Assembly: GCA_038044525.1 (NCBI GenBank)
Contig: JBBSZV010000033.1
Location: 7,131 to 71,130, forward strand
Length of the DNA: 64,000 nucleotides
Direction: 5' to 3'
Source: Nanobdellota archaeon
Lineage (GTDB): Archaea; Nanobdellota; Nanobdellia; Woesearchaeales; GW2011-AR9
Below, piece after piece: positions 7,189-54,876 of this stretch; within the stretch, counting starts at the first letter, position 1; every line of letters starts with the position of its first letter. The notes under the pieces were generated by a model. That model searched no databases and had not been told where the DNA came from. It saw nothing but the letters and a program-made list of their open reading frames with translations. A program made the translations under genes and the position numbers.

Positions 7189-7437
7189 GTGCAAGATTTG
7201 AAATTGGGTAATATAACCTTCAGTAAGAACGTTCGAGAAGACATATTAGAGCTATTTGGTAAAAGTTTAGACGAAGAAGGATTTATTGTAGAAAAAGACG
7301 ATACTTCTCAGCGGGTTCTTACTCCAAAAGGTGAAGAAATCCATATCGATGAATGGGCCGGCGTAGTTAAAGGTTCTGAAGCTTTTGTTAAGAATGACGC
7401 TCTTTCTTTAATTGAACTTGCAAAAAAATTAGAATGA
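7189..7437 (+). CDS. Small hypothetical protein (82 aa, GTG start). First gene of an AT-rich island.
   Basis: An ORF in a low-GC segment. Its stop overlaps the next start (ATGA). Confidence 0.35.
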   Translation: MQDLKLGNITFSKNVREDILELFGKSLDEEGFIVEKDDTSQRVLTPKGEEIHIDEWAGVVKGSEAFVKNDALSLIELAKKLE

Positions 7438-8252
7438 ATCTTATTCTTGATAAGTTGAAAACAATATTTCACGGTAAGTTTGATGATATTTTATCAAATA
7501 ATAACATCAAGATTTTCGATTTTTCTAAAAATACAACGAATATACTTGAAATTAAAGATGGCCAGAAACTTGATATTGATTTAGGTAAAGCCAATGCAGA
7601 AGAAAAAAAATTAGTAAAAGAAAGAATTATAGATTTAATGGTTCAAAGCGAAAATGGGGCATTTCTGTCTGCTGATTCCTTCCAAAAGACTAAAAAAATT
7701 AAGTCAAATCTTCCTACCGGAGAAGATGAGGAGCTATTAAAATTCTATAAAGATAAACTTAAACTTGAAATGTATAAAGCATTGGAAGCTTCTCTTGTCG
7801 TACGAAATGCTTTTAAAAAAGGTGAGGAAATAACTGATCTTAAAAAAGATATATCTAAACTTTACCCTACTTTTGGTAAAAATATTTGCAATTTAGTGAC
7901 TAGGGAATATTTTCATACTCACTTTAAAGATTTATACGATAGCATGATCGAAGATCAAGATTTTGATATTAATCTCTATCAAAGAAAAGTAGAAAAAATT
8001 GTTCAGTCTCTTCCTTATACAGTTTTCGTAACGAGATATAGGTCTTATGATGATCTAAGTGGTGAAGTGAGATTTAAACTTGAAAAATTAAATAAATATG
8101 GGGCCGGCAGATTATTACTCCACGGCTTAGGAAGGGAAAATGTCAGTGCTACTTTAAATCTCTTAGAAGAATACAAAGATGATAAAAGCATCACTATCCA
8201 AAAAGAATTAAATCCTGGAGGAACAATCATTACAGCAACTCTAATTTTCTGA
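7434..8252 (+). CDS. Hypothetical protein with a C-terminal Smr-like (small MutS-related) nuclease domain.
   Basis: The C-terminus reads ...GAGRLLLHGLGRENVSATLNLLEEY...SITIQKELNPGGTIITATLIF. This matches the Smr pattern LDLHGL...A...L...IItGkG...GG.G...v.L. The N-terminal 190 aa are unrecognised. Confidence 0.4.
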   Translation: MNLILDKLKTIFHGKFDDILSNNNIKIFDFSKNTTNILEIKDGQKLDIDLGKANAEEKKLVKERIIDLMVQSENGAFLSADSFQKTKKIKSNLPTGEDEELLKFYKDKLKLEMYKALEASLVVRNAFKKGEEITDLKKDISKLYPTFGKNICNLVTREYFHTHFKDLYDSMIEDQDFDINLYQRKVEKIVQSLPYTVFVTRYRSYDDLSGEVRFKLEKLNKYGAGRLLLHGLGRENVSATLNLLEEYKDDKSITIQKELNPGGTIITATLIF

Positions 8253-8291
8253 GAAACCGACCTAAAACTATATAAAATCAAACTTCTTTGT

Positions 8292-9791
8292 TTGAGCAAA
8301 AGAGGCATTATGGTCAAGTTTAAAGTAAAGGATATGGATATAGCTACAGGAGGAATCTTTGTAGCTATCCTCAATCAGAAAGATGCGCACAAGCTGGACC
8401 TGCATTCCGGCGATCGTATCTTAGTCAAACACAACAGCAAATCCATCACTTGCATTTTAGACATTTCTCAAAGCAATAAAGCGGTTCCTGAAGGAAAAGT
8501 GGGCTTATTTGAAGAAGTTTTAACCAAACTTCATATCAAGCAAGGCGCAGCAGTTGAAGTAAAACTCACTGAAAAGCCGGAATCAGTAAAACATATCCGC
8601 GATAAATTGTTCGGCAAGGAACTTAATTACACGGAATTGTATCACATCACTGATGACATCACTCACGATCGGTTGACCGACATCGAAAAAACTTACTTCG
8701 TGGCTGCATCATTCATCCATAAATTAAGTGTGCGTGAAATAGTATGGCTGACCAAAGCGATGGTGTTGACCGGGCGGCAATTAAAGTTTAAGGGAGTAAC
8801 TTTAGACAAGCACAGTATCGGCGGAGTGCCCGGCAATAGAACTACCATGGTGGTAATTCCTATAGTAGCTGCTGCCGGCTATACCATTCCCAAAACAAGT
8901 TCACGTGCCATCACTTCCCCGGCCGGGACAGCTGACACCATGGAATGTTTAGCAAAAGTAGAATTATCTGAATCCAAAATAAGGCAGATAGTGCGGAAAA
9001 CGGGAGCCTGCATAGTACACGGCGGCTCGATGAATTTAGCTCCTGCCGACGACAAAATAATCGATGTTGAACATCCTCTCTCAATCGATGCCGAAGGGCA
9101 GTTGCTGGCTTCAGTCATGGCCAAAAAACATTCGGTCGGCGCCAATCATGTGCTGATCGATATTCCCATGGGCAGAAGCACTAAAGCGAGAACTAGGAGC
9201 GAAGCAAAGCATCTAAAGAAGATGTTTGAGCTTATCGGAAGGAAGTTAGGCATAAATGTCCGGGTGATAATCACGGACGGCTCGCATCCAATAGGGAATG
9301 GAATAGGGCCGTTGTTAGAAGCTGAGGATGTCATGGCGGTATTACGCAATGATCCTTTAGCGCCGTCAGATCTGAAAGAGAAATCATTGATGATGGCCGG
9401 AATTCTGCTGGAGATGGCCCAGTGCTGCACGGTCGGCGAAGGAAGAAAGCTTGCTCAGGAGATGTTGGAAAGCGGGAAAGCATTAAAGAAAATGGACAAT
9501 ATTATTCTGGCGCAAGGGAAGCAGAAAATGCCGGCATTGGGAAAATACCGTTTCGCGGTTAAAAGCAGCAAATCTGGTAAAATAACTGAAATAGATAATG
9601 AAATTATCGCTAAAATAGCTAGGATAGCTGGGGCTCCAGATGATAAAGGAGCAGGGCTGTACCTGTCAAAGAAAATTAATGTTCACGTGCAGAAGGGGCA
9701 GTTGTTGTACACCATCTATGCAGAAAGCCAGTTCAAATTGGATCGGGCGAAGGAGTTTGCAGCTTCCAATAATGGTTATGCGGTGAAATAA
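8292..9791 (+). CDS. deoA: AMP phosphorylase (archaeal thymidine-phosphorylase-family enzyme with an N-terminal extension).
   Basis: About 500 aa. The N-terminal domain resembles archaeal AMPpase (KFKVKDMDIATGGIFVAILNQKDAHKLDLHSGDRI). The pyrimidine-nucleoside-phosphorylase core contains SIGGVPGNRTTMVV, TSSRAITSPAGTADTME and GGSMNLAPADD. The true start may be the internal M at 8310. Confidence 0.75.
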   Translation: MSKRGIMVKFKVKDMDIATGGIFVAILNQKDAHKLDLHSGDRILVKHNSKSITCILDISQSNKAVPEGKVGLFEEVLTKLHIKQGAAVEVKLTEKPESVKHIRDKLFGKELNYTELYHITDDITHDRLTDIEKTYFVAASFIHKLSVREIVWLTKAMVLTGRQLKFKGVTLDKHSIGGVPGNRTTMVVIPIVAAAGYTIPKTSSRAITSPAGTADTMECLAKVELSESKIRQIVRKTGACIVHGGSMNLAPADDKIIDVEHPLSIDAEGQLLASVMAKKHSVGANHVLIDIPMGRSTKARTRSEAKHLKKMFELIGRKLGINVRVIITDGSHPIGNGIGPLLEAEDVMAVLRNDPLAPSDLKEKSLMMAGILLEMAQCCTVGEGRKLAQEMLESGKALKKMDNIILAQGKQKMPALGKYRFAVKSSKSGKITEIDNEIIAKIARIAGAPDDKGAGLYLSKKINVHVQKGQLLYTIYAESQFKLDRAKEFAASNNGYAVK

Positions 9792-25397: not shown

Positions 25398-28300
25398 ATG
25401 ATAGGTTCGCAAAAAAAGAGATGCTGGAGAATTTTGGTTTTCATAGTCCTGGGGCTGTTCCTGAATCTTCCGATCGTAAGCGCATTAGAGATATCTAATG
25501 TCCGCGCCGAAATTATTTCACCTACTGAAGCAGAAATATCATGGGAAACTGATGAGCCTGCCGGAAGTTTTGTTGATTATGGTCTTTCAGAAGAAACCCT
25601 CGGAAGAGTCGGCGATGCCAGCCAAGTGGTGGAGCACATAGTAGCGTTATCTGATATTGCGCCGCAGTCAACTTATTATTTTCAGGTGCAGAGCGGAGAA
25701 GTCATAGATAATAATGATGGAAGCCTGTATTCTTTCAATACCCTCGCTCCCGACACTACCGCACCAGAAATAAATGTTGAATTGCCGGCAGCGGTGCAGG
25801 GAAACAGGATTGATTTCTCCGGAACCACTGAATTCGGAGCGACGGTCAATGTTTTTGTGAACGGCCCCTTGTTAAGGGTTGTGGCTGCCGACGCAGCTCT
25901 GCCTGACGATCCGTCACAGGGGAGATTTACCATCACTGATCTGGCTCTGGACAGCAATAAGGATAATCTGGTTAAAATAGAAGTGATTGACCTAGCTGGG
26001 AATGATGCATCGATGCAGGTGACCGTATTTTCAGACACCAGCAAACCAAAATTGGATTTGGTGGTCCTGCCGGAGTTCGTGAGCGAGAAAAATTTTATCC
26101 TGAGAGGGACTATCTCTGAGGAGAGCTCTTATGAGATTTTTATTGCTGAAGATTCTGTCGCTGAAGGTCAAGGAACTGCCTTGCAGGCCGAATTATCTTT
26201 AGAAGAAGGCGGAAACAAGATCAAGATTGTGATTACTGATAAGGCCGGCTGGGTGACTGAAGAGGAATTCAACATCATCTCTGATACCAAAGCACCTAAA
26301 GTAGAATTTGATTTCGCCAAAGGAAAGGAATATTACCAGGGAAATGCAGAGACTGACATTTCAGGGGCTACCGAACCTGGCGCAGAAGTGTATCTATTTA
26401 TTTTCCGTCCACTCACTTATGAATTCACTCCCACCTTTAACAAAGCTTGGGAAAAAGTTACCGCTGATGCGCAGGGAAGGTTTACCTTTGAGGAAGTAGA
26501 TCTGGAAAGCCCACCTATCAGTTTAGAAGATCTTGCTCCACGGCAAATTCCTTCAGGCTTAAATGCTGAAACTATTTTTCCTATAGAACAGATACAGGCG
26601 GCACAGAAATTTACCTATCATGTGTATTTAGTTGCCGAAGATAAAAGCGGCAAAACAGGATATGCAAAAAAGCTGGTCAATATCAATACCTGCTATTCTG
26701 CCGATTTTGATTTTGACGTGCAATCGCTGGCCAGGTTCCAGGCTCCTCTGCGATTAAACCCGACTTTGCTTGATGACGGCAGGGAAGAAGTAACTGCGGT
26801 ATTTAATTTTAGTTACCGCGGGAAAGGAATTTCAACCCAAGGCCAGTCAGCTTTCCAGATCCAGAACGTCCAGTTCGATAAGGCCTGCACTCAAGGGATG
26901 CTGGAAGACGACAGCACTAAGATAGGATGCAATATTTTCCCGCAGCAGCCGCGGCTGATGCCGAATGCTGATAAGACTGCCTGGTATATCACGGCGCCTC
27001 TTTTCACTACAGAAAAGTTCAGCGATAAGAAAGAAGATTTCTGGGACGAATTCGGCAGGCGGCAGATAACGTTCCCTCTGAAAATTAAAATTACTTACCG
27101 TGATAATCTGGGCGGCGGAAAGATGAGCGACCTTAAGACACAGGTATCTTGTTATGAGCTAGGTTATTTCATCGACATACCTCTCGAAAGCAAAAACATG
27201 ATTCCGGATTTCTTAGCTGAAGAAGGTCTGGATGCAATCGAATTTACTATCGATAAAATTGATATTGTTTTGCCTTATCTGGAAAATGCTATTTTAGTTA
27301 CGGGGATTGCCTGGGTAAGTTCGTTCATAGGTAAGTTAGCCGTCAGGTATGCCCGGCTGGTCAGTTCTAAATTAGAAGCTTTCTTCAGCAAAGGAAAAGC
27401 TAAGAATGAGCAATGTCCGGGGGATCAGGAAAAATATTATACCAAGAGTGAGATCCAGCACTGGAGAGAGCTGAAAGCGCGCGGCTTGCTGGAAGGAGAA
27501 GAAAGATTAAGAAAAGATTGGGAAGATGAATCGCAATCGATAGAAGAATTATGTCCGAGCACTGCTGGCCTGTGGGAAGCAGAAAAAGTTATTGATCAAG
27601 CCTACCGCTGGACCGGAGACAGAGTATTATGCCGGACCGTTCCTGCCGGATGGACTTCTACCAAAGATAAACCGGAAATTGATACCGTCATCGCGGGGCA
27701 GAACCAATGCACTGCCTCCAGCCGAGGCGTACCGCTTCTGGAAATTGAGAATTGCGGAAAGCGCATAGAAGAAAATACCAATATTGCTAATCCTAATGCC
27801 AAAGCAGCGCGGTTAGTCGACGAAGGAGAATTCACCTGTTACCAGTCGGGAGATTTCTTGTATTACGCAAATCAAGATTCAGCGACGACATTGCAAAATG
27901 GCGGTTCTTTAGTGCGGCTGGAAAGAGTTCACGATTTTGGTTTGAGCATTCAGCAGGCGGGATTATACGCTGGTGCAGGAGATTTGATTGCCTATCAGCC
28001 GCCAGGTTCTGACCAATATGTCATCGGGCAGGATAAAACCTGTGAACAGGCGTGCAAAAATCCGCGGAAATCCGGCTACCGAGCTTATGTGGAAAAAGGA
28101 TTAAGGACCGTCACTGCCGACGGACAGGAAGGATCTTTTGGCTGTTTCCAGGAAAGGGTCAACGAATTTGGAGATATAAACCCGGTTGGCGTCGCTACTC
28201 AGGATAATCCTAACGATCCCCAAGGGATTGGTTCCAGACAGTTTTCGGCAGGTTATACCCGCGACTGTTTCATCGATTATCAAAAAGGCGGTGTCACTCC

Positions 28301-30848
28301 CGGTGATGCGAATATCAATAATCCTTGTAACGTCCATGATGATTGCACCGGCGGAGCGTTATGTCTTTCCGGCGTTTGTTCCGCGCCTCCGTCTAATAGT
28401 GTTGCGCTAAAAGGATCAACTGACACCACCACCGGTTTATTGCAGTGCGTATGCACATACGACGAAAAGCAAGTGAAACATTATCCCGGTGTCAGGACGG
28501 CTATGAAAGAGCAGAATGGCATCGCTGAAGAGTGGTCTTATCATCAGCAACAAGTATTCAAAGAATCAAATAATCGTTTCGGAACGTATTATCCGGAATG
28601 GAGATATTATGGCGGCCGGGACTTTTCGTCTGCTTTTGGAGCAGATTACCTTTTAGATTATTTCCAGTCGGATAAACAGGTGCATCAAGTCAGCCCCAAC
28701 ACGCAGTTCTTAGGCGCATATCAAACGGTCTGCTTATCGCGGGTAAGAGCGCATTTAATCACATTAAAAGCAATTCTGGAAGGACTGCGCAATTGCATTC
28801 AGGAAGCAAAATACACCGGCCTGCGCGATGCAGGAGTTTGTAAAACTATTTTCACCCAGCAGGTATGCGGTTTAGTCTACAAAGCGATCGCTTACTTTGT
28901 CAACCAATGCAGCCCCTTTGATTTCAATGACGAAAGCAAAGGAACATTAGGGGGCATCGGCGCAGTTACTGAAGCGACCTTCGGCTCTATCGGGGAAGCC
29001 ATGCAGTCGTCCATCGATGATGTGAAAAGCGATTATGGCAACGCGCAGTTGAATAATTATTTTGCTGCCGGCGCAGAAGGATTGACTCAGTCTATGTGCA
29101 TGGCTGCTTTCGGCTACGACTGGCCGTTGGGCGCAGATTTTATTCTTGATGCTGCTTATGCAGTTCCAGGAAAAACAACTGTGCATGTAATTCCCGCGCA
29201 CCGGGAATTGTCAACTTACGATCCTTCTTCTGGGAATGCCGTCTATAATTACGAAGTCGGCGCTTTGATATTGCCGGGCTGCAGGGTCAGAAGTTATAAT
29301 GTTTATCTGAAATGCGTCGGTCCGGAAGATTCCGGAAAACCGGGCGTGCAATGCGGCGAGCAGGGCTGCGACTGCTTGCATACGACAGAAGTGAACTCAT
29401 TATTGGAAGGGGATAAGAAACATTCCCTGGATGGCGGCAGAGGATTTGATCTTAAGCCGAACGGATTTTTCAGCGTTCCCATACCTTCTCCGCAGAAAGT
29501 AAACAAACCGTTCAGGTACGACCACGTCGTGGTAGAGCTGCAGCTGGACCAGTCTGAACAAGGAAATGAAGACAAATGTTACGATACCGGATACGAAGAC
29601 GGAAAATTCTATTTCCCGATCGTTGATGTATCGCCGCCGGGAACGGGAGTATGCCAGGTGCAGCCATTGACGGGAAAATATACTTGTCCTGAATTCATGA
29701 GTTTATTTGGCGGTGAAGAAGGAGCATACCTGCAGGATCCGTACATCAGCTGTTATGATGCCGATACGCGTTCCTGGATTCCGTGCATTACGCCGAATAT
29801 CTTTACCAAGGGCGAAGAGATAAAAGTGCGCGCGGAAGCGGTCAGCGACGGAAAAAAATATTGCGTGAAAATGAGCACTTCGGGATTACCTCAGCAGGAT
29901 GTGCAGTTCCGACAACTGCCAGTGGGCATCCCAGGAAATTTCCCGGTGGAAATGTCTTTAGGTTCAGTCACGCCGAATTTGTTTACTGGTGCAACAACGA
30001 CTATAGTATTAACCGGCGGAGACAAGAGCTGCGAATCTAAATTAAAACTGATAGATTTCCCGGCGGGAGACATCGATACTGCAAGTTTGAAATTTACTTA
30101 CCAGAAATTAGGCGATGATAGTTACAGGATATTTGTTCCAGAAGGAATTTCAATTTCATCTGAAGGCGGTTATAGTGCCAATGGAGCAACTTTAACCAAG
30201 AATGGAAAAGAAGAGCTCACTTCTGCTGAAATACGAGAAGCCGTATTTGACTATAAAGGGATGCGTTTCAGCAACGCTGTCGGCGCTCCGGGAAGCGGGG
30301 ACAGCTGTGAATACAGAGTCAGGGCGGCGGCAGGGGCGCAGTACGCGCAGAACGAAAAGACCATTTCCGTCACCGCAGAATTATTGCAGCCGGATGCGGT
30401 AGGTAATTGTTACAATGCAGAGATCCCGGTCAAGAGCCAGATAGGGTATTCGAGATACACGCAGCCTATTAATCTGCGGTTGGAACCTTTAGTATCGCAG
30501 GCAGCCAGTCAGATGTATCAGGATTTCATGCGTGAAAATTATGCAAAAGTTATCGGCAATGCGGAAAGCATCGTCAACCGCGGCATCTCCGATATCGAAG
30601 ATGCGACCGCATTATATTATCTGGTCGCGGCGAAAATCGCAGACAGCCAGAAAAGGAATGTGGACTGGAAGGTTTCTTTCCGGGAAGATATCTGCGATCT
30701 GATCGGCGTGTTTAAAACCAGAAAATCCGGCAGCATACCTCTCGGCCAATATCCTGACGAAGTCAGGAGCAGCGCAGAATACAAGAAGATAGAAGCATAT
30801 TTCGGCGAGATTGAAAAAGAAGCCCAATGCGGAGTTACGAATGTTTAA
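25398..30848 (+). CDS. Giant secreted protein (1816 aa): signal peptide, an N-terminal fibronectin-III-like domain, Ig-like repeats, and a long Cys-rich C-terminal region.
   Basis: Signal peptide ...VFIVLGLFLNLPIVSALE. The FN3-like segment reads ISNVRAEIISPTEAEISWETDEPAGSFVDYGLSEE...STYYFQVQS. More than 60 Cys lie in the second half, including CNVHDDCTGGALCLSGVCS. Confidence 0.6.
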   Translation: MIGSQKKRCWRILVFIVLGLFLNLPIVSALEISNVRAEIISPTEAEISWETDEPAGSFVDYGLSEETLGRVGDASQVVEHIVALSDIAPQSTYYFQVQSGEVIDNNDGSLYSFNTLAPDTTAPEINVELPAAVQGNRIDFSGTTEFGATVNVFVNGPLLRVVAADAALPDDPSQGRFTITDLALDSNKDNLVKIEVIDLAGNDASMQVTVFSDTSKPKLDLVVLPEFVSEKNFILRGTISEESSYEIFIAEDSVAEGQGTALQAELSLEEGGNKIKIVITDKAGWVTEEEFNIISDTKAPKVEFDFAKGKEYYQGNAETDISGATEPGAEVYLFIFRPLTYEFTPTFNKAWEKVTADAQGRFTFEEVDLESPPISLEDLAPRQIPSGLNAETIFPIEQIQAAQKFTYHVYLVAEDKSGKTGYAKKLVNINTCYSADFDFDVQSLARFQAPLRLNPTLLDDGREEVTAVFNFSYRGKGISTQGQSAFQIQNVQFDKACTQGMLEDDSTKIGCNIFPQQPRLMPNADKTAWYITAPLFTTEKFSDKKEDFWDEFGRRQITFPLKIKITYRDNLGGGKMSDLKTQVSCYELGYFIDIPLESKNMIPDFLAEEGLDAIEFTIDKIDIVLPYLENAILVTGIAWVSSFIGKLAVRYARLVSSKLEAFFSKGKAKNEQCPGDQEKYYTKSEIQHWRELKARGLLEGEERLRKDWEDESQSIEELCPSTAGLWEAEKVIDQAYRWTGDRVLCRTVPAGWTSTKDKPEIDTVIAGQNQCTASSRGVPLLEIENCGKRIEENTNIANPNAKAARLVDEGEFTCYQSGDFLYYANQDSATTLQNGGSLVRLERVHDFGLSIQQAGLYAGAGDLIAYQPPGSDQYVIGQDKTCEQACKNPRKSGYRAYVEKGLRTVTADGQEGSFGCFQERVNEFGDINPVGVATQDNPNDPQGIGSRQFSAGYTRDCFIDYQKGGVTPGDANINNPCNVHDDCTGGALCLSGVCSAPPSNSVALKGSTDTTTGLLQCVCTYDEKQVKHYPGVRTAMKEQNGIAEEWSYHQQQVFKESNNRFGTYYPEWRYYGGRDFSSAFGADYLLDYFQSDKQVHQVSPNTQFLGAYQTVCLSRVRAHLITLKAILEGLRNCIQEAKYTGLRDAGVCKTIFTQQVCGLVYKAIAYFVNQCSPFDFNDESKGTLGGIGAVTEATFGSIGEAMQSSIDDVKSDYGNAQLNNYFAAGAEGLTQSMCMAAFGYDWPLGADFILDAAYAVPGKTTVHVIPAHRELSTYDPSSGNAVYNYEVGALILPGCRVRSYNVYLKCVGPEDSGKPGVQCGEQGCDCLHTTEVNSLLEGDKKHSLDGGRGFDLKPNGFFSVPIPSPQKVNKPFRYDHVVVELQLDQSEQGNEDKCYDTGYEDGKFYFPIVDVSPPGTGVCQVQPLTGKYTCPEFMSLFGGEEGAYLQDPYISCYDADTRSWIPCITPNIFTKGEEIKVRAEAVSDGKKYCVKMSTSGLPQQDVQFRQLPVGIPGNFPVEMSLGSVTPNLFTGATTTIVLTGGDKSCESKLKLIDFPAGDIDTASLKFTYQKLGDDSYRIFVPEGISISSEGGYSANGATLTKNGKEELTSAEIREAVFDYKGMRFSNAVGAPGSGDSCEYRVRAAAGAQYAQNEKTISVTAELLQPDAVGNCYNAEIPVKSQIGYSRYTQPINLRLEPLVSQAASQMYQDFMRENYAKVIGNAESIVNRGISDIEDATALYYLVAAKIADSQKRNVDWKVSFREDICDLIGVFKTRKSGSIPLGQYPDEVRSSAEYKKIEAYFGEIEKEAQCGVTNV

Positions 30849-33890: not shown

Positions 33891-35780
33891 ATGAGCGTCG
33901 AATCATTCTTAGAGATCTGTAAACGGCAGTATGAGCCGCAGCATCTTTCCGTATTTAATGCAGCTTTGGCCTTTTCTCAAAAGCATCTCGGCGAAGTAAA
34001 ACGATTGGCAGGTGATTCCTTTTTTGACCATAATGTCCGGGCGGGAGAAATCTTGGCGGACAGCAAAGTGTCGCCGGAAGTGGTGGTCGCCGGTCTGCTG
34101 CATGGGATTTTAAAATATTCTTCTGAAAAAGAGGTCTTAAATATTTTCGGCAAAGAGATCCTGCTTTTGCTGAAAGGAGAAGAAGAAATCAAGGCGGTCA
34201 AATCAAAAAATCCTCTTCTGGAAGCCGAAGCCCTGCGGAGAATATTGCTTGCGACATTAAGAGACGTACGGGTTATTTTTGTTAAGCTCGCCGCTAAATT
34301 AGATAATCTTAGGGCCATCTCGGTGCTTCCCGAGGAAGACCAGAGACGCATCGCAGAAGAAGTAATGGAAGTATATGCGCCGCTGGCTAACAGATTGGGA
34401 TTGGAGAAAATAAAAAATCCTCTGGAAGATTTGGCGCTGCAGATCCTGAATCCGGAAAAATATCGCGAAATAACCGAATTCCTGGAAGAATCACGTGAGC
34501 AGCGGGAAGCGTTGATCAAAGAAATGATTCAATCGGTGAAAGAGTTGGCCGCGGGAAAAGTTGAGATCATCAAAATCAAAGGCCGTTCCAAGCACATCTA
34601 CAGCATCTACAAGAAGCTGGTGCAGCGCTGCGTGCCTTTAGCAGAACAATATGATTTGTCGGGCATCAGGGTAATTGTTCCGGAAGTAAATGATTGCTAT
34701 ACTCTCTTGGGACTCTTGCACGAGAAGCTCGAGTCCGCGGAAGGAAGATTAAAAGATTATATCGCCAACCCTAAACCTAACTTTTATCGTTCTCTTCACA
34801 CCGGAATTCTGTCGTCATCAGGAAAAATTGTGGAGATTCAGATTCGCACCCCGGAAATGGATGAGCTTGCTGAGGAAGGGCTGGCTGCGCACTGGCGGTA
34901 TAAGAAACTGAATTCCGATGAATTATTTGAAAAGAAAATTGCCTGGCTGAAAGGAGTTTTAGATATGCAGAAGGAAGAAAACCACGAATTTTTAGAGATG
35001 GCTAAAGTAGACGTGTTTGGGGATAATATCTATTGCTACACGCCAAAAGGCGACGTTAAAGAACTGCCTAAGGGAGCAAATATCCTTGATTTTGCTTATA
35101 TGATCCATGAAGAAGTCGGAAACCATGCGGTAGGAGCGCACGTGAACGGAAAATTCGTCTCTTTGAAACAGCAGCTTTCTTCCGGAGATGTAGTGGAGAT
35201 ACTTACCAACAAAAGCCAGCGCCCCCGACGCGACTGGCTGAAATTAGTCAAATCTGCGAATGCCAGAAATAAGATTCGGAAATCTCTTAAAGAATATGAT
35301 AAGCTTCCGGCTCTTCATTTTAAGCAGCTTAAACCGGTGGTGACAGAAGAGCAGGGCATTTTAGCAGAAGCGCCCGACTATGCCAGCGCAGTATGCGTAT
35401 TAGCTAAATGCTGCAATCCTCTGCCGGGAGAAGATATTGCCGGCTTAATCACTAAAAGAAGAGTCATTTCCGTCCACAGGATCGATTGCCGCGCGGCATT
35501 GAAAGAGCAGGAGCGCTGGGTGGCGGTGCAATGGAAAAATGGATTCAACCAAAAAATAAGATTTTATGCTGTAGCTGAGGAAAGGAGCGGCCTGTTGGCT
35601 GATCTTTTAAACGTCATAGCCAATACCGGTTTTGAGGTTAAGGAAGCAAAAGCAAAATTGTTAGACATAACCTTAGCGCAATGCTCTTTTTTAGTGATAC
35701 CAAAAGATTTGGAACATCTGAAAGAACTGGTAAGGCGGGCGCAGAAAGTAAGGGGGATAAAAAAGATGTATTTCGGATGA
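33891..35780 (+). CDS. Long RelA/SpoT homolog (RSH) with HD-like, (p)ppGpp synthetase, TGS and ACT domains.
   Basis: The synthetase motifs are GRSKHIYSIYKKL, IRVIV...CYTLLGLLH, KDYIANPKPNFYRSLHT, VEIQIRTPEMDELAEEGLAAHWRYK. The TGS domain reads YCYTPKGDVKELPKGANILDFAYMIHEEVGNHAVGAHVNGKFVSL. In the HD region, LLHGIL replaces the usual LLHDVVED, so the hydrolase may be inactive. Confidence 0.75.
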   Translation: MSVESFLEICKRQYEPQHLSVFNAALAFSQKHLGEVKRLAGDSFFDHNVRAGEILADSKVSPEVVVAGLLHGILKYSSEKEVLNIFGKEILLLLKGEEEIKAVKSKNPLLEAEALRRILLATLRDVRVIFVKLAAKLDNLRAISVLPEEDQRRIAEEVMEVYAPLANRLGLEKIKNPLEDLALQILNPEKYREITEFLEESREQREALIKEMIQSVKELAAGKVEIIKIKGRSKHIYSIYKKLVQRCVPLAEQYDLSGIRVIVPEVNDCYTLLGLLHEKLESAEGRLKDYIANPKPNFYRSLHTGILSSSGKIVEIQIRTPEMDELAEEGLAAHWRYKKLNSDELFEKKIAWLKGVLDMQKEENHEFLEMAKVDVFGDNIYCYTPKGDVKELPKGANILDFAYMIHEEVGNHAVGAHVNGKFVSLKQQLSSGDVVEILTNKSQRPRRDWLKLVKSANARNKIRKSLKEYDKLPALHFKQLKPVVTEEQGILAEAPDYASAVCVLAKCCNPLPGEDIAGLITKRRVISVHRIDCRAALKEQERWVAVQWKNGFNQKIRFYAVAEERSGLLADLLNVIANTGFEVKEAKAKLLDITLAQCSFLVIPKDLEHLKELVRRAQKVRGIKKMYFG

Positions 35781-35854: not shown

Positions 35855-36073
35855 ATGACAAATATGACTCTATCAATACCTAAGGAACTGCACAGCGAAA
35901 TGGCGGCACATTCGGAAATCAGATGGAGCGATGTTGCCCGGCAAGCTTTTGAAAAGAAAGTAGAAGAGCTGCATTGGATGGACAAAGTTTTGGAAAAAAG
36001 CGCGCTTACTGAGAAGGATGCAGGAGAGATAGGTCATAAAATAAAGCATGAAATAAGAAAAAGGTTTTCTTAA
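35855..36073 (+). CDS. Ribbon-helix-helix (CopG/VapB-like) antitoxin candidate.
   Basis: 72 aa. The N-terminal beta-strand MTLSIPKELHSEM is followed by helices. Its stop overlaps the next ATG (TAATG). Confidence 0.45.
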   Translation: MTNMTLSIPKELHSEMAAHSEIRWSDVARQAFEKKVEELHWMDKVLEKSALTEKDAGEIGHKIKHEIRKRFS

Positions 36074-36486
36074 TGCGTTTGATAATCAATACCAATAGGA
36101 TTATAGCTGCGCTCATAAAAGATTCGGTCTCCAGAGAAATATTCCTTCATCTTGATGCCGAGTTAATAACCATTAATTTTTCGAACAAAGAAATCGATAA
36201 ATATAAGGCTCTTATCCTTAAAAAAGCAAGAATTACGGAACTGGAATTTAACATCCTCCTTGAAAAACTCAAACAAAAGCTAATTCTGCTTGATGACAGG
36301 ATTATTTTAGCTAAAATGGAAGAAGCAGGAAAAATTATGGATAGGATTGACCAAGATGATACGCCCTTTATCGCAGCAGCATTAGCAACCGGTTCAGATA
36401 TATGGTCTGATGATACCCATTTTGAGAAGCAAAAAAAAATTAAGGTTTGGAAGACGAAGGATTTAGCCGGATTAATGAAAAAATAA
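36073..36486 (+). CDS. PIN-domain (VapC-like) toxin candidate.
   Basis: 137 aa. The N-terminus reads LIINTNRIIAAL. The C-terminal acidic cluster DDTPFIAAALATGSDIWSDDTHF is typical of PIN active sites. Confidence 0.5.
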   Translation: MRLIINTNRIIAALIKDSVSREIFLHLDAELITINFSNKEIDKYKALILKKARITELEFNILLEKLKQKLILLDDRIILAKMEEAGKIMDRIDQDDTPFIAAALATGSDIWSDDTHFEKQKKIKVWKTKDLAGLMKK

Positions 36487-39186: not shown

Positions 39187-40152
39187 ATGTCAGAACCAAA
39201 ACAAATTCCCACCACCGAGAACATCGTATTTAAGCCCGCTTTCATAGAACGATATTCGCAGTTAACTGACTGGGAAGAATTCAAGAAGTATTCTCTTTCT
39301 TTCCTGCGCAGGAGCATCCGGGTCAATACCTTGATGGGGACGATCCAGGAGGCGCGGAAAAGCATCGAAGCCAAGGGATGGAAGCTCATGCCGATCCCCT
39401 GGTGCAAGGAAGGTTTCTGGATATCCCATGATGAAAGAAGGGATGTAGGAAACTTACTGGAGCATCATACAGGAAAAATTTACGTACAGGAAGCGGCTTC
39501 CATGATTCCGCCATTAGTATTAAAGCCAAAACCAGGAGACATAGTCTTGGACATGGCCGCTTCCCCTGGAAGCAAGACTACGCAGATGGCAGCGATGATG
39601 AATAATAAAGGATTAATCATTGCTAACGATTACAAAGGCGATCGTCTGCAGTCCTTAGGGATAAATCTGCAGCGCAGCATCACCACTAATTGCATCATCA
39701 CGCTGATGCGCGGGCAGGGCATAAAAGGGATGCAGTTTGACAAGATCCTATTGGATGCGCCTTGTTCGGGAACCGGCGCTATCAGGAAGAGCCTTAAGAC
39801 CATCGGCATCTGGAATCCGCACATGATCACCAAATTAGCCCGAGAACAGAAAGAACTTATCACTGTAGCTTTTGAAAATCTTAAGCCGGGCGGAGAGCTG
39901 GTCTATTCCACCTGTTCGGTCGAGCCGGAAGAGAACGAAGGGGTAGTCAGTTATCTGCTTAAGAAATATGAAAATGCTAAAGCGATAAAAGTTACTCTTA
40001 AAGGGCTGAAAACCAGCCCCACGATAGCGGAATTTGAAGGAGAACAATATCATCCTGAGGTAAAGAACGCTTTGCGCATCTGGCCGCAGGATAATGATAC
40101 CGAAGGTTTTTTCGTTGCAAAGCTACGAAAAATACCCACGAACGAAGCGTAG
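39187..40152 (+). CDS. NOL1/NOP2/Sun-family RNA (cytosine-C5)-methyltransferase (aTrm4/RsmB-like).
   Basis: Contains VLDMAASPGSKTTQMA, FDKILLDAPCSGTGAIRK and LVYSTCSVEPEENE. Confidence 0.75.
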   Translation: MSEPKQIPTTENIVFKPAFIERYSQLTDWEEFKKYSLSFLRRSIRVNTLMGTIQEARKSIEAKGWKLMPIPWCKEGFWISHDERRDVGNLLEHHTGKIYVQEAASMIPPLVLKPKPGDIVLDMAASPGSKTTQMAAMMNNKGLIIANDYKGDRLQSLGINLQRSITTNCIITLMRGQGIKGMQFDKILLDAPCSGTGAIRKSLKTIGIWNPHMITKLAREQKELITVAFENLKPGGELVYSTCSVEPEENEGVVSYLLKKYENAKAIKVTLKGLKTSPTIAEFEGEQYHPEVKNALRIWPQDNDTEGFFVAKLRKIPTNEA

Positions 40153-40249: not shown

Positions 40250-40660
40250 TCATCGTTTTATCCTCCACCACACTGCACCCGCTAATAACCCATTACTCAC
40301 GAAGCCGAGAATAGGTCTGTACGGCTCAAAATAGGTCATCAGAGTAGTTGCTCCAAATACAAAAACAAGTAATTTATTACAAATGGGACAGGCAAACGCG
40401 AAGAAACTACCTATTCCTCCCGTAGTTGCAATCGTATCGCACTTTTTGATTGTATTTTTTTTGTAGTAATGGACTCCAACATACGCGCCGAGTAAAATAG
40501 AGCTACTCGCGAGAAAAATATAATCCAATGTATTTATTGGAGTCATTCTTGTAAAAAATGAGTTCGGCAAAAGTGAGGTAATGATTCCAGATACAACAAA
40601 GAAAAGTAATCCTGTTCCGAGTCCTAAGAGTACATATTTCAATTTCTGGTTCATATTCAT
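40250..40660 (-). CDS. Small polytopic membrane protein with an intramembrane CxxC (ACPICN).
   Basis: 136 aa with four hydrophobic segments. CxxC is FAFACPICNKLL. Adjacent to the DsbA-like gene. Confidence 0.4.
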   Translation of the reverse strand: MNMNQKLKYVLLGLGTGLLFFVVSGIITSLLPNSFFTRMTPINTLDYIFLASSSILLGAYVGVHYYKKNTIKKCDTIATTGGIGSFFAFACPICNKLLVFVFGATTLMTYFEPYRPILGFVSNGLLAGAVWWRIKR

Positions 40661-41506
40661 TCACTTCAATTGTAATGCTTGTATATATCTTCCTTTCTCA
40701 CAAATATGATCTCCATTACGTAGCATACAACCTAAGCAAGTGGACTGACCGGTTGGAACGTTATTCTGTGTTGGCTGCATCTTCATCCACATACCACCAG
40801 TTTTAGCGCAGACTTCTTTGAATGGCAGATCTGCGTAAGGGTCATTATTGCTAGTCACTATAACGTTTCCCGTTATTCCTGAACCAAGATTTCCTTTTAA
40901 TGCCAAAAATCCGAAAACAGCTATCAGAACGACCACTATCAATTTCCAAATTGTTGACTTCTTTACTGAAACATTGTTATTTTCCATATTAACCTCCTTT
41001 TGTGCAATATTGCACGTCTTTGTTGCTATTTTATTTGATAGATAAACTATTGATGCACCTAAAAGACCAATGCCGAGAAACCCCAATTCTAATCCTTTAA
41101 ATGGAAGCACCGCTAAGAATCCACCAAAGCCTAAGACGCTCAGTAATCCAATTGCACACGATGGACACGCGGGAGCTATCAAACTTATGAAGATACTTGA
41201 TGTTCCTGCCTTAAGACTTCCTTTAACTTGCCTTTTCACTAAAAAAATGGTCATTGTCGTGACAACACCAGCAAGAACTGACATTATAATGAGAAGTATG
41301 AAAGAAAGAGCAGTCATTGATGCGAGTGCTCCCTTAAGCAAGGAAAAAAACAGCGAGAAAGAAAAATCAGAAAAAAGTATGCGGTAATTGTTCACAAGTG
41401 TATTGAAAAGAAAAATTGCCAAAGCAACGCTGAAAGTAACTAAAAAGTATTTCTTAAAACTGTACACCTCTTTTAGTGCTTCCTGCACTTTATTTATGTA
41501 TTTCAT
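40661..41506 (-). CDS. Membrane protein with an intramembrane CxxC (APACPSCA) and a Cys-rich C-terminal soluble domain.
   Basis: 281 aa. An N-terminal TM bundle is followed by C-terminal CAKTGG...CLGCM...HICEKG. Confidence 0.4.
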   Translation of the reverse strand: MKYINKVQEALKEVYSFKKYFLVTFSVALAIFLFNTLVNNYRILFSDFSFSLFFSLLKGALASMTALSFILLIIMSVLAGVVTTMTIFLVKRQVKGSLKAGTSSIFISLIAPACPSCAIGLLSVLGFGGFLAVLPFKGLELGFLGIGLLGASIVYLSNKIATKTCNIAQKEVNMENNNVSVKKSTIWKLIVVVLIAVFGFLALKGNLGSGITGNVIVTSNNDPYADLPFKEVCAKTGGMWMKMQPTQNNVPTGQSTCLGCMLRNGDHICEKGRYIQALQLK

Positions 41507-42933: not shown

Positions 42934-43956
42934 GGCTAATATGAAACCCTTGTAATTCTGATGAATATCAGAATTACTTGTTTTCCCGCTTCTAACATTC
43001 TGTCAATGTTATAGGCAACGATTCTACACATTGCTTCCACTTTTTGGTTCTTTACATCCTTTGATTTGATACTAAACCCAAACTTTCTTTTGAGAATACT
43101 GAAAGTAGTCTCAACCTTGTTCCTTTGAAGGTATTCTCCATAATCAAACACATCAAACGTCTCTTTTCTGTATCTTCCTTTTCTTCTATGCTTTGGCACA
43201 TCTAATCTTTTCTGGAGAATAAACGGGTATGCTCCCAGCTCTTCAAATACTATTTTGAAGAGCTTCTCGGCATCATATCCCCTATCTCCGTAAAAAGCTT
43301 CTGGTCGGTAATTTTTTGCCAATCTCCGGGTCATTGTATATGCATCAATCAGGTCGTGTCTTGCTTTTTTTCTAAGCTTAAATTGTAGGATAAAATAATG
43401 CTTTATATCGACGATAATACTTAGCTTCAAGAACGGACGTTTTTTGTATGCTTTTCCGATTCTTTTGCAGTAATGTGGACTGGCATTATCCAAACTAATG
43501 CCCGTTCCATCGATAGCAACCTTTTCAGGTTGCTCAATAAGTTTGCTAAACGCAGCCATAAGCTTATCGAAGATAGCAGTAGGAAGTCTCTTCGCAAACT
43601 TGATAAGAGTTGTATATTCAGGGAGCTTATTTAGCCCTAAATATGCCCTAAGCGTGATATTATCGCTTAAATCTTCAAGCAATTCCTTATAAGTAAACTT
43701 ACGGAATTGCTTGTATACCAGCAAAAAGAGATGCTGGTATTGGGTATAAAGCTTATTTGAGAACTTGGAGTTGTGAAGCATAAGCTCCGCTTCTCTGAAC
43801 AATTCATAGCAAAAATCAGCAAGTTTTTTAAATTTAGAAGTTATTATTTCCATTCGTAGTTCACCTCGTCGATAAAAGCGTCTTAAGACAACACTTTATC
43901 GACGTGAACTACTTTATATAACTTCTGAATCAAAGCCGGAGGGTTTCATATTAGCC
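42934..43956 (-). mobile_element. Complete IS element of about 1.0 kb (IS5/IS4-superfamily-like) with 16-bp perfect TIRs (GGCTAATATGAAACCC) and a 9-bp TSD.
   Basis: The TIRs are at 42934-42949 and 43941-43956 (reverse complement). A single DDE transposase ORF lies inside. The flanking 9-bp direct repeats indicate a recent insertion. Confidence 0.75.
42936..43853 (-). CDS. DDE transposase (IS5/IS4-like).
   Basis: Motifs AIDGTG, GDRGYD and NKVETTFSILKRKFG match the D-D-E / R-x3-E-x3-K signatures of the IS4/IS5 superfamily. 305 aa. Confidence 0.7.
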   Translation of the reverse strand: MEIITSKFKKLADFCYELFREAELMLHNSKFSNKLYTQYQHLFLLVYKQFRKFTYKELLEDLSDNITLRAYLGLNKLPEYTTLIKFAKRLPTAIFDKLMAAFSKLIEQPEKVAIDGTGISLDNASPHYCKRIGKAYKKRPFLKLSIIVDIKHYFILQFKLRKKARHDLIDAYTMTRRLAKNYRPEAFYGDRGYDAEKLFKIVFEELGAYPFILQKRLDVPKHRRKGRYRKETFDVFDYGEYLQRNKVETTFSILKRKFGFSIKSKDVKNQKVEAMCRIVAYNIDRMLEAGKQVILIFIRITRVSY

Positions 43957-45732: not shown

Positions 45733-46299
45733 CTATCTTTCCTTAACTTTCCCTTCTACTAAATTAACTACCTTAGAAGGCCGCCCTTTCTTTTCGCCTT
45801 CGTAGATGATGAAGTCTACTCCGTCTTTAATGGTTTGATCCAAATCTTCCAATGAAGTCATGAATGGCTGTCCGGAACGATTGGCGGAAGTTGTAATAAT
45901 CGGAAAACCCAGTTCTTCGACCACGTCGCCGAACCAATGGCCGGGGATTCTTACACCGATGGTTTCTTGGTCTAAATTTACGTTTTTAGCGATAGCGTTC
46001 TTATTTTTTAGTTTCAGGATGAGCGTGTAAGGGCCGGGAAGCTTATTGAGCAAATCCTTTGCTTCCTTAGTAATTATGCAATTTTCGGTGATCCATTCTT
46101 TTGAAGGGGCGATGATTGAGAATGGGTTTGCTGGGCGCTCTTTTAATCTCCTGATTTTTCCCACTGCGTTTTTGTCAAGTGCATTGCAGCCGATGCCGTA
46201 GATGGTGTCGGTCGGATAGATGAATACTGCTCCATCACGGATCCGTCCGGCTATCTCGGCATAGCGCAGGCGAAGTTCAGCTTTGGTAAGAGTTTCCAT
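45733..46299 (-). CDS. tsaC: L-threonylcarbamoyladenylate synthase (TsaC/YrdC/Sua5 family; t6A biosynthesis).
   Basis: Contains FIYPTDTIYGIGCNALDKNAVGKIRRLKERPANPFSIIAPS and PGPYTLIL. Confidence 0.75.
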   Translation of the reverse strand: METLTKAELRLRYAEIAGRIRDGAVFIYPTDTIYGIGCNALDKNAVGKIRRLKERPANPFSIIAPSKEWITENCIITKEAKDLLNKLPGPYTLILKLKNKNAIAKNVNLDQETIGVRIPGHWFGDVVEELGFPIITTSANRSGQPFMTSLEDLDQTIKDGVDFIIYEGEKKGRPSKVVNLVEGKVKER

Positions 46300-46858
46300 T
46301 AATTAGGGTGGTTATTACTGATTTATAATCTTTCCGAAAAAAAACGCGGCCGTTTCCGGCCACGAAAAGGGTAGTGAGGTGTGTGGTCTTAAGAAATAGC
46401 GTAGTAGCAATCGTAATCATCTATGAACGTCTGCTTGTTCTGCTTCTGCGCCGGCTCTTCGTACTTTTGCATAAGGTACAGAATCCGGTCTCTTATATTG
46501 TTCATGTTATTATTGTTCATGTTATTCATCATAACCACCCCCCGCTTAGTTGGTAATCAAAAGAACCTTCTTTAGTCATGACCGTTTTTTGGGTCAATTC
46601 CCGCACCTGCCTTTCAAACAATTGTTGAATTGTTCTTGTCGTAAGATCCATCATGGTTTATACCACCTCTGTTTTTTGATAAATAATCTGATGTTAGAAG
46701 TTGTTTATATAGAAGACCCGGACTTGTCTAGTGCGGGAGTGGATAATCTAAAGAGCTTAAAAATCTTAAATTTTTAGTAATTAAGCCTTATTGGGCGTTT
46801 GTCCGGTGGTTGTCCAGTGGGTCATGGAAGAAATTTTCAAAATGTAAACTCTTTCAGT

Positions 46859-47239
46859 TTATTTAACCAAAACACCATTCAGAGTAGCTTCTTGCCCAGG
46901 TCGGGAAGTAATCCTGACTTTCCCCAGCTTAGTTTCCACAACAGCACCTTTAGTGATAATGTTTCGTCTTACCAGATGTGGGTTGGCTGGGTTTCCTACT
47001 ACGTTAAGAATTTCAACTTTAGTAGCTTTTCCTTTATTATCACAAACGTTAACGTTGCTGGCAGTCAGAAGAGAATGTTTAGTCCGTCCGCCGCGTATTC
47101 TGGTAGTTTTGACTTTCCGTTCTTTCTCCAGTTTAGTATTGGCAGGAAAGCCGGCCAATTCGCGCAGCCTTTTAGTCCTGGTATAATGATACCTTCCGCC
47201 GGATGGTTTCCGGTTGGATCTTCGTTGTGAACGTGCCAT
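46859..47239 (-). CDS. rps8e: 30S ribosomal protein S8e.
   Basis: Contains MARSQRRSNRKPSGGRYHYTRTKRLRELAG and IRGGRTKHSLL. The family is restricted to archaea and eukaryotes. Confidence 0.85.
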   Translation of the reverse strand: MARSQRRSNRKPSGGRYHYTRTKRLRELAGFPANTKLEKERKVKTTRIRGGRTKHSLLTASNVNVCDNKGKATKVEILNVVGNPANPHLVRRNIITKGAVVETKLGKVRITSRPGQEATLNGVLVK

Positions 47240-47291: not shown

Positions 47292-47618
47292 TTAAAACAA
47301 ATCGTCGTCAATCGCATCGAAATATGAGATTGGCTCCAAATCTAAATCAAAGGGGTCGTACGTTTGTTTTTGCGGTTGTTTTCTTTCCCAAACCAGCGAG
47401 TGATAAATAGGCCTTAAAATATCCCGCGGGCTCGGATACAAGACGCGCACATTTCTCATCTCATATCTCAAAGGCAGCTCTCCCTCTTCTACGAATGTTC
47501 CCCGCGCTGAACAAATAATTTTTGTTTGGTCATCCCTGATAGTCACATATTCCGGCCCTTCCGGGACAAATATTACTTTTTCATCGATAGCGATATCTTC
47601 AATAATGCGCAAAATCAT
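47292..47618 (-). CDS. Hypothetical protein.
   Basis: 108-aa ORF. Its start overlaps the upstream LonB stop by 4 nt (ATGA). Confidence 0.3.
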
Positions 47619-48286
47619 TTTTTCCTTCGGAATATTTTTTCTTTAAGTTTCTCATTCCCATTCCAATCCAAGGCATGTCCCATCACTTCTTCAATAGTAT
47701 CTACGGGGATAATTTTTACTTTTACCAATTTCTCTTCATCGATAACAATATCCTGGAGGTTTGATTTAGGAACAATGACCGTTTTCATCCCGGCATCGAT
47801 GGCTGCTTCGACCTTGGAAGAAACGCCGCCGACAGGAAGGACTTCTCCGCGGACGGACAGCGAACCGGTCATGGCCACGTCTTGTTTTATGGGTATCTCT
47901 TTCAATGCAGATATGATGGCGGTCGCCACGGCGATGGAAGCTGAATCTCCTTCCACGCCCTCATGGGTCTGCAGGAACTGCACGAATATATCTTTAGTCT
48001 CTTTGATATCTTCGCCGAAATATTTTTGGATGATAGCAGACACGTTCTTGACTGCTTCCTTGGCGATCTCTCCGAGTTTTCCGGTAGCAATAATCTCTGC
48101 TTTCTTCCCGCCGGGAGTCACTTCTGCTTCTATCGGCAGTAAAATTCCCGAGTATGCAGAACCGCCGCCGATGACCGCCAATCCATTGACTCTTCCGACG
48201 CGCAGGCCGGAAGTGATGATCACTTCGTATTCTTTCTTGCGTTCGATATATTTGTCTGCCATCTGCTGTTCCAGGGGCCTAGCCAA
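47615..48286 (-). CDS. lonB: Lon protease proteolytic domain (archaeal LonB C-terminal part).
   Basis: Contains [13 protein letters not shown] and [16 protein letters not shown] (catalytic Ser), followed by [21 protein letters not shown] (catalytic Lys). It is in the same frame as the upstream ATPase ORF, separated from it by a single TAG. Confidence 0.7.
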
Positions 48287-48307
48287 TATTTTTGCTTCCT
48301 TGACGTG

Positions 48308-49573
48308 CTATCTGTTCACAAACTCGGATTCTTCTTCTCGTGCTAAGTCGCCGGCAGCCCGAACTAATCCGCCCAGGCCGCGCAGGTGCAACGTAAGGCG
48401 CCCCTTGTGGTTGGCTCTCCTCCGCGCTTCTTCCACGATCGCTTTCAGTGCAGAAAGATCAAAATGGGGAATTTTTCTGTCTTCCTTTTTTATTTCCTGG
48501 GCAACAAAACGGGCGATCTTAGTCCGGTTCTCCTTAGTGTCAGGCATGGTTTCGTTCATATATACTTCATACCCGTATCCCCTGATCCTGGAACGCAGGG
48601 CTGGATGCATATTCTTGATGGTCTCGGGATTTCCTGCGGCGACCAAAATAAAATCGCAGGGCACCGGTTCGGTCCGTACCATCGCGCCGGCAGAGCGTTC
48701 AGACTGTCCGGTGATGGGGAATTTTTTTTCCTGCAAGGCAGAGAGCATTTCTTGCTGTGTTCTGGGATGAAGCGTAGCGATTTCGTCGATGAATAACACT
48801 CCCTTGTGTGCTTTATGGATCATTCCGGCCACGACTCGCTGGTTTGCCGGAGTTCCTAATCCGCCTGATTGAAACGGGTCGTGCAGTACATCACCTAACA
48901 ATGCTCCTGCGTGTGCGCCGGTAGCATCAAAGAATTGCGCTTGTTTTTTGTCAAAATTGTCTACGATAACTTTTGGTGCGATAACTTTAGATGTTTGGAA
49001 CATTCTCGGCCCCATATTTATAGATATGGCAAATCCAGCAAGAAACATCATGCCGCCTAAGAAAAAAGCGGTGAACATCAAATCTGATTGATAATGATAG
49101 CGGATCCACCAAGGCGCAATGAAAGTTATGATAGCGACAATGAACAGCAGAAAACTATTATTTTTCATAGACTTATTAGCATCCAACTGATAACTTAATG
49201 CTTCTTCTCTCCCTTTTCCGGCAGGCAGGGTTTTGATGTAAGGATTATTTTCATCATTAGGGTTGGGATAAGCAAGGGTATCTTTCAAGTCGGATTTGGG
49301 AAGAAGTTCGGCCAAGGCAATTCCCAGCATGGATTTTCCTGTTCCTGGCTCGCCTATCAATAGGACGTGCCGGCGCTGCAGTGCAGCTTTTTTAATTATT
49401 TTGACTGCTTCTTCCTGGCCCAGAACTTGGTCTACTATTTTATCAGGTACCTTTATGTTCTTAGTGGTGATATTTTTAGCTGATTCCATACTTACCTTAG
49501 AACATCTATCACTCGATGGGTGTAAATTCCAGTCTTGATTTAAAAAGATTGCGGAGAAATGGGGGAGATTCAA
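48308..49573 (-). CDS. lonB: Archaeal membrane-bound LonB AAA+ ATPase module with the characteristic two-TM insertion between Walker A and Walker B.
   Basis: Walker [25 protein letters not shown] insert [17 protein letters not shown]...[17 protein letters not shown]. Walker [12 protein letters not shown]. It ends at an in-frame TAG (48308-48310). Confidence 0.75.
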
Positions 49574-49595: not shown

Positions 49596-49844
49596 CTATA
49601 CCCTACATTTGCCGCAGCAGGCGCATTCAGATTCCCCCAAGCCCCGGTACCTAATTACTGGATGGTTGCATTCTATTTCTGGTATATTTGCTGCTTTGTA
49701 GCGTCGGACGACTTCTTCTTCAAGCTGGCTTATTTCTTCTCCAGCCTCAGCTACTTTTTTTTGAAGAGCCTCATATGTTTCATAAAGGGCGCCATAATTT
49801 TTCCGGGCTTCTAACAAATCCGTAATATCTGGTAAATTTGCCAA
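49596..49844 (-). CDS. Small hypothetical protein with a C-terminal Cys cluster, possibly a zinc ribbon.
   Basis: 82 aa. Ends ...[25 protein letters not shown]. Confidence 0.3.
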
Positions 49845-54174: not shown

Positions 54175-54876
54175 CTAATAATACTCTACTTCTTTTTCAG
54201 CGTAGATGCCTTTCTTCAGTTCCACCGGCCGCCATTCGTCGATGATTAAGGTCGCTCCCAGCCATTCTGACAATTCCTTGGGGTTGCCTATGGTTGCCGA
54301 AAGGCCGATGATCTGCGGCTTGATGAGGCTCTTAAGGAGCGTAAGGATAATTTCCAAAGTAGGTCCCCTGGAAGTATCGTTCAATAGATGGATCTCATCC
54401 ACGATCACGGTTTTCACTTCGGAAAGCCAGCCAACCCTATGCCGCAGAAGCGAATCCAGCTTTTCCGTGGTAAGGATAAGCAAGTCGTAATCGGTCAGAT
54501 AGTCGGCTTCAGAATCTACGTCGCCGGTCGAAAGTATCACTTTGTATGGAGAATCCTTGAACAAAGTTAGATATTCCTTGTATTTTTCTGTCCCTAGGGC
54601 TTTGAGCGGCACTAAATATATACTCTTGCTCTTTTTGCGCTCTTGTTCCAAGGAATTATCCTGGGTATTATCCTGAGTATCATGGTTGCCCAGAGTATTA
54701 TATATAGCCATAGTAGCGATCAAAGTTTTCCCGGAAGCAGTAGGGGCGCAGACCAGAATTGATTTTTTCTCCAAGAGTCCGGCTTTTACGGCTTTCTCCT
54801 GGATGGGCGTAAGAGTATTGAATGCGGCATATCGTTTTTTGAACGGTTCGGGCAGGGGAAGGCTGTTGATGTCCAT
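54175..54876 (-). CDS. Ski2/Hel308-like superfamily-2 helicase, N-terminal RecA1 domain only (truncated, 233 aa).
   Basis: Q-motif TPIQEKA. Motif I CAPTASGKT. Motif II VIVDEIHLL. Motif III LSATIGN. The ORF ends just after ...IIDEWRPVELKKG, so the RecA2 and downstream domains are missing. Confidence 0.55.
   Translation of the reverse strand: MDINSLPLPEPFKKRYAAFNTLTPIQEKAVKAGLLEKKSILVCAPTASGKTLIATMAIYNTLGNHDTQDNTQDNSLEQERKKSKSIYLVPLKALGTEKYKEYLTLFKDSPYKVILSTGDVDSEADYLTDYDLLILTTEKLDSLLRHRVGWLSEVKTVIVDEIHLLNDTSRGPTLEIILTLLKSLIKPQIIGLSATIGNPKELSEWLGATLIIDEWRPVELKKGIYAEKEVEYY

Follow-up and report, generated by a model that had tools for sequence, protein, structure and literature searches.

In a 64,000-nucleotide stretch of a contig from a Nanobdellota archaeon (hereafter, the window), the gene for the archaeal membrane-anchored, ATP-dependent protease LonB is divided by a single in-frame TAG codon, raising the question of whether this stop belongs to the biology of the organism or to one sequence of it. 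An earlier reading of the same stretch, made from its letters alone (the sequence-only reading), had offered four explanations and chosen none: a recent nonsense mutation, a sequencing or assembly error, programmed amber read-through and a genuinely split, two-subunit Lon. Here we compare the locus with its counterparts in further assemblies of this population, and the protein with its closest listed relatives, a check that the earlier reading had itself suggested; we find that the first two explanations survive and that the other two are contradicted. The TAG is not a property of the genetic code of the organism or of its Lon architecture. It is very probably an unselected AAG-to-TAG change private to one assembly, and would then be a nonsense allele of very recent origin or else a mistake in the consensus.

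The minus-strand frame around lonB comprises 679 codons that are open apart from the TAG. As had been read from the letters, one stop divides an ATPase part from a protease part of the same frame; translation confirms this, and the two parts tile the NCBIfam LonB model TIGR00764 (positions 6–380 and 390–605 of 608). The N-terminal piece by itself scores 518.6 bits against this model, for which the curated cut-off is 516.6 bits, and the intact population allele P0001 scores 854.3 bits and covers positions 6–604 of 608. The earlier length of 421 residues for the N-terminal piece proved too long: the TTG at 49573 is not the true start, and translation begins at the ATG at 49489 (MESAKN...), as it does in all relatives, leaving 393 residues before the stop (Table 1).

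The domain content is that of a complete archaeal LonB, and the earlier description of an AAA+ module with Walker A, a two-helix insert and Walker B followed by a Ser-Lys protease domain holds at the level of motifs and Pfam families. Walker A (GEPGTGKS) lies at residue 46 and Walker B (VLFIDE) at residue 231; between them, at about residues 110–160, are two hydrophobic helices that, as read from the sequence, would place the protein in the membrane, an insert that is missing from the soluble construct of Thermococcus onnurineus LonB (TonLonB; 3k1j). The part 5′ of the TAG matches AAA+ families and positions 1–51 of the 65-position archaeal LonB AAA-LID Pfam profile. The part 3′ of it contains the Lon_C protease domain (E = 6.9e-34), with the catalytic serine motif GDSAS at residue 514 and the catalytic lysine motif SSKVEAA at residue 557, both of which align with those of TonLonB and Archaeoglobus fulgidus LonB (AfLonB). 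The match to 3k1j has an E value of 1e-222. The locus is, in short, an ordinary single-chain archaeal lonB of the textbook kind.

Table 1 Features of the lonB locus and the two window-private bases (window coordinates).
Feature	Position	Strand	Description
lonB	47615..49489	minus	624 codons plus TGA stop, codon 394 being TAG; archaeal membrane-anchored ATP-dependent protease LonB (translation, TIGR00764, Pfam)
N-terminal fragment, if the TAG terminates	48311..49489	minus	393 aa: Walker A, two-helix insert, Walker B, LID without its last helix
In-frame TAG, codon 394	48308..48310	minus	Base 48310 (coding T, plus-strand A) is the sole difference from the population AAG (Lys)
Codons 395–624	47618..48307	minus	Last LID helix, linker, Lon_C Ser-Lys protease domain
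Downstream 108-aa ORF	47292..47618	minus	Function unassigned; ATGA (4 nt) overlap with the lonB stop; conserved beside lonB in every related contig
Second private base	36024	plus	G in the window, A in 5/5 covering contigs; Gly in place of Glu57 in an RHH_12 antitoxin-like ORF of 72 aa (35855–36073)

The codons at the site read ...GTG AAC AGA TAG CAC GTC AAG... on the minus strand, and the change from AAG is a coding-strand transversion, A to T, that hits the first of three consecutive As (AGAAAG). The sequence-only reading had placed the stop in a linker between the two domains; the Pfam LID profile, which is cut at position 51 of 65, and the structures 4zpx and 1z0w place it instead within the final helix of the LID (small α) subdomain. 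The crystallized AAA+ module 4zpx extends about 9 residues past the site, and protease-domain constructs (AfLonB, 1z0w) start about 26 residues after it. The overlap that had been described between the end of the protease half and the downstream gene is present as a 4-nt ATGA.

Among the long pairs of same-frame segments in the window that are parted by one stop, only the lonB pair was shown to tile one protein family. Two other pairs were checked for a like interruption, and neither points to a second broken gene. No Pfam family matches the pair at 40250–41506, for which the gene calls of public contigs give the same two genes (136 or 134 aa, and 281 aa); in the pair at 7434–9791, only the downstream ORF has hits (nucleoside phosphorylase-like).

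On the other side of lonB lies an 82-residue ORF (49596–49844, minus strand) that has a cysteine-rich C terminus (...ECNHPV...CACCGKC) and no Pfam match, and that sits between scpA and lonB both in the window and in a strain of 96.4% nucleotide identity (L001). It is in frame with scpA, following the TAG stop of that gene, in the window and out of the scpA frame in L001, so the shared frame in the window is coincidental.

To place the interrupted allele in its population, we used contigs from Hainich groundwater that come from many assemblies made separately (wells H41, H51 and H52; 0.1- and 0.2-µm filter fractions, with replicates and Logan per-run assemblies), which were gathered through a look-up of the downstream 108-residue ORF; three more look-ups widened the comparison. 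All nine independent contigs that cover the site, one of them from a Logan run, carry AAG (lysine) at codon 394. Over 1.5–5.1 kb, five of the contigs (L005, L007, L010, L012 and L013) depart from the window at base 48310 alone. Complete copies with gene calls encode an intact LonB of 624 residues, with the single apparent exception of L004 (Hain_H41_02um_R1_11494), in which lonB is called as two genes of 571 and 57 residues (contig positions 5277–5450, at about window position 47848). The cause of that split is a scaffold gap of 11 Ns, and it is an artefact. A single polypeptide with both ATPase and protease is thus encoded in nine other assemblies and in all 120 listed relatives, and is broken at codon 394 in the window as written.

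The comparison reaches well beyond lonB. Thirty-six public contigs match 38.4 kb of the window, such that about 60% of it can be compared with other assemblies, and 29.9 kb lies under at least three contigs. Among the contigs there are 359 variable sites (the 98.4% strain L032 included). Only two bases of the window, 48310 and 36024, differ from every contig that covers them, and the 38.4 kb compared with public contigs holds no indel private to the window. The second private base also falls in a coding sequence, an antitoxin-like ORF that is paired with a PIN_2 toxin ORF (36073–36486). About 4% of random single-base changes in lonB would create a stop, so that one nonsense change among two private changes is unremarkable.

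Neither private change is on record elsewhere in the collections searched. The public gene collection contains none of the products that a split lonB would give (393, 421, 223 or 215 aa), nor the Gly57 form of the antitoxin-like protein at 72 or 69 aa. A 49-nt pattern around the TAG, with N at the variable base, had no match in the GTDB representative genomes and one match among JGI/ENA metagenome contigs (L014, the same contig as L008), which has AAG.

The window also bridges an insertion sequence with a DDE_Tnp_1 transposase gene (42936–43853, minus strand), at which short-read contigs stop: L021, L022 and L024 end at 42984–42994, and L015 begins at 43712, inside the transposase gene. A related transposase adjoins scpA in the 96% strain (L001, 7649–8578).

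More distant sequences agree with the population in the form of the gene. A search with the read-through protein gave 120 listed matches at 79–99% identity, with source names that point to Woesearchaeota and Nanoarchaeota (DPANN archaea). All 120 are single chains, of 617–653 residues save for one intein-bearing form of 1,091 residues. In the alignment column of codon 394, these listed relatives have Glu in 63 cases, Lys in 23, Asp in 8, Gln in 6, Asn in 5 and Val in 4. The best match, P0001, is 99% identical in protein, has 624 residues and places a lysine opposite the TAG; its gene is 96.4% identical in DNA, with the codon AAG. AAG with an intact product of 624 residues is the state of the next strain (L001–L003; 96.4% nucleotide identity). 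The intein-bearing relative, P0085 (82% identity over 92% of the query), contains PF14890 and PF14528 and represents a real and known kind of interruption of a LonB gene.

Codon differences from the 96.4% strain number 16 synonymous and 2 non-synonymous in the ATPase part and 40 synonymous and 6 non-synonymous in the protease part. The pattern is alike in both halves, which indicates that the protease half has not drifted and, as judged from these counts, points to equally strong purifying selection on the two parts and to a protease half that is free of decay. Apart from the stop, no base of lonB differs from the intact alleles of the same strain, and the gene bears no secondary damage; the TAG, if real, would therefore be extremely young.

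We propose that AAG (Lys394) became TAG in one sequence, either as a very young allele that happened to be the consensus of its sample or as a base wrongly called in the consensus. A real TAG would end translation and leave a membrane ATPase fragment of 393 residues with an incomplete LID; any protease domain would then have to come from inefficient restart, which would make this a loss-of-function allele. The change itself is probably recent or artefactual. The two possibilities are about equally probable and together take up the great bulk of the probability.

A real nonsense mutation, either fixed in the sampled lineage or carried by most of it, would make lonB a fresh pseudogene or knock-out allele; this possibility comes close to an even chance. 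The quality of the window speaks for it. The sequence is otherwise very accurate, with no private indel in 38 kb, and it spans the insertion sequence at which short-read contigs stop, the mark of a sound assembly, where few substitution errors are to be expected. The second private substitution, at 36024, gives the window the look of a slightly distinct real strain, and single-base variation is common in this population, as the 359 variable sites attest. Against this, none of the nine other assemblies, which span three wells, has the allele, and the strong purifying selection on lonB makes a sample majority unlikely; both private changes are, moreover, non-synonymous, the pattern expected of unselected changes such as errors. 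Membrane Lon is also reported to be essential in Haloferax volcanii (PMC4343526).

That the TAG arose by sequencing, assembly or polishing error, or by some other alteration of this record, the cells themselves carrying AAG, has not quite an even chance. Base 48310 is the sole base that parts the window from five otherwise identical contigs, no other record has it or the second private base, and selection would be expected to remove a nonsense change from a conserved housekeeping protease gene. An artefactual split of the same gene already exists in public data, in L004. What weighs against an error is the nature of the change, a clean A-to-T transversion in a sequence without indels across the 38 kb compared; in assemblies of good coverage, few substitution errors reach the consensus.

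The most novel outcome, a TAG that is real and the majority allele in the sample, such that a groundwater archaeon of the DPANN type lives with LonB knocked out or working as two separately translated pieces, is quite unlikely. If true, it would mean that an episymbiont of reduced genome size can do without membrane Lon or can have it split.

A functional two-subunit Lon, in which restart at the TTG at 48286 or the ATG at 48262 yields the protease as a polypeptide of its own that assembles in trans with the ATPase, is very improbable. These two candidate start codons follow the TAG by 8 and 16 codons and are preceded by weak AGGA/GGA motifs, and the protease half is intact, with both its catalytic serine and its catalytic lysine. 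The break nevertheless falls inside the last LID helix and not at a domain border; none of the 120 closest listed relatives is split, and no other assembly of the population shares the break. Both restart codons and the motifs upstream of them are unchanged in the intact alleles (L005 and L007 are identical there), such that nothing in this context has been adapted to separate translation. All Lon proteases are described as single-chain enzymes (PMC9569914). A conserved two-subunit Lon is not supported.

Read-through of the TAG by pyrrolysine or a suppressor tRNA, to give full-length LonB, is the least probable explanation, the chance of it being minute. The frame does continue sensibly through the TAG, and the residue replaced is lysine, of which pyrrolysine is a derivative; the latter is only a coincidence. 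Recoded pyrrolysine TAGs are conserved among orthologues and accompanied by pylTSBCD. In the window, by contrast, TAG is an ordinary stop. It ends 14 of the 66 ORFs (TAA ends 28 and TGA 24; the coding density is 91%), among them rps2 (3698–4321), for which a TAG stop had been noted earlier, and an RsmB/F methyltransferase gene (39187–40152), and the Pfam profiles of both run to their ends. Orthologues have not kept the TAG: AAG stands in all nine population contigs, even those otherwise identical to the window, and in the 96% strain, and the 120 listed relatives lack the TAG. The flanks are identical to those of intact alleles, indicating that no dedicated read-through signal has evolved. Scans of the 64-kb window for tRNAs and Rfam families returned neither, and no pyl gene was seen in it. 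Programmed amber recoding, or pyrrolysine, at the lonB TAG is not supported.

Several other features of the window deserve record. At 33891–35780 (plus strand) lies a gene for a long RelA/SpoT homologue of 629 residues (HD_4, RelA_SpoT, TGS, RelA_RIS and a weak ACT match) in what is apparently a DPANN genome; its Pfam domains were read from a gene of the same length at the matching place in L018, which is 99.8% identical to the window there. Long RSH enzymes are unusual in archaea. An ORF of 1,816 residues (25398–30848, plus strand) has no Pfam family on record and is followed by one of 812 residues with only a weak FGE-sulfatase match. An ORF of 233 residues (54175–54876, minus strand) has a DEAD/ResIII helicase core without Helicase_C, and its relative in L001, of 261 residues, likewise has DEAD only. 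Between the Sua5/YciO gene (45733–46299) and the gene for rpS8e (46859–47239) is a gap of about 560 bp (46300–46858) in which no ORF is convincing and Rfam finds no match; public calls give only ORFs of 41 and 47 residues there.

The private AAG-to-TAG change carries little biological weight in itself, as a single-base event in a textbook LonB. It does call for caution, since an in-frame TAG with a sensible read-through, seen in a single sequence, resembles recoding or a split gene; comparison with assemblies of the same population settles such cases at once. We advise that the locus be annotated as one lonB with an internal stop (a pseudogene or 'low-quality sequence') and not as two genes.

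Set beside known systems, the gene shares its AAA+ module, membrane insert, LID and Lon_C domain with archaeal LonB as represented by TIGR00764, by T. onnurineus LonB (3k1j and 4zpx) and by the protease domain from A. fulgidus (1z0w), from which it differs only in having TAG in place of AAG at codon 394; otherwise it is like its intact neighbours. The pyrrolysine TAGs of the methylamine methyltransferase genes mtmB, mtbB and mttB, in Methanosarcinales and relatives, are likewise single in-frame TAGs in otherwise intact archaeal genes; unlike them, the lonB TAG is missing from otherwise identical genomes, and TAG is an ordinary stop in the window. There is a likeness, too, to point-nonsense pseudogenes and to artefactual gene splits in metagenome-assembled genomes, in which, as here, a housekeeping gene that is conserved and free of secondary decay is broken by one private base.
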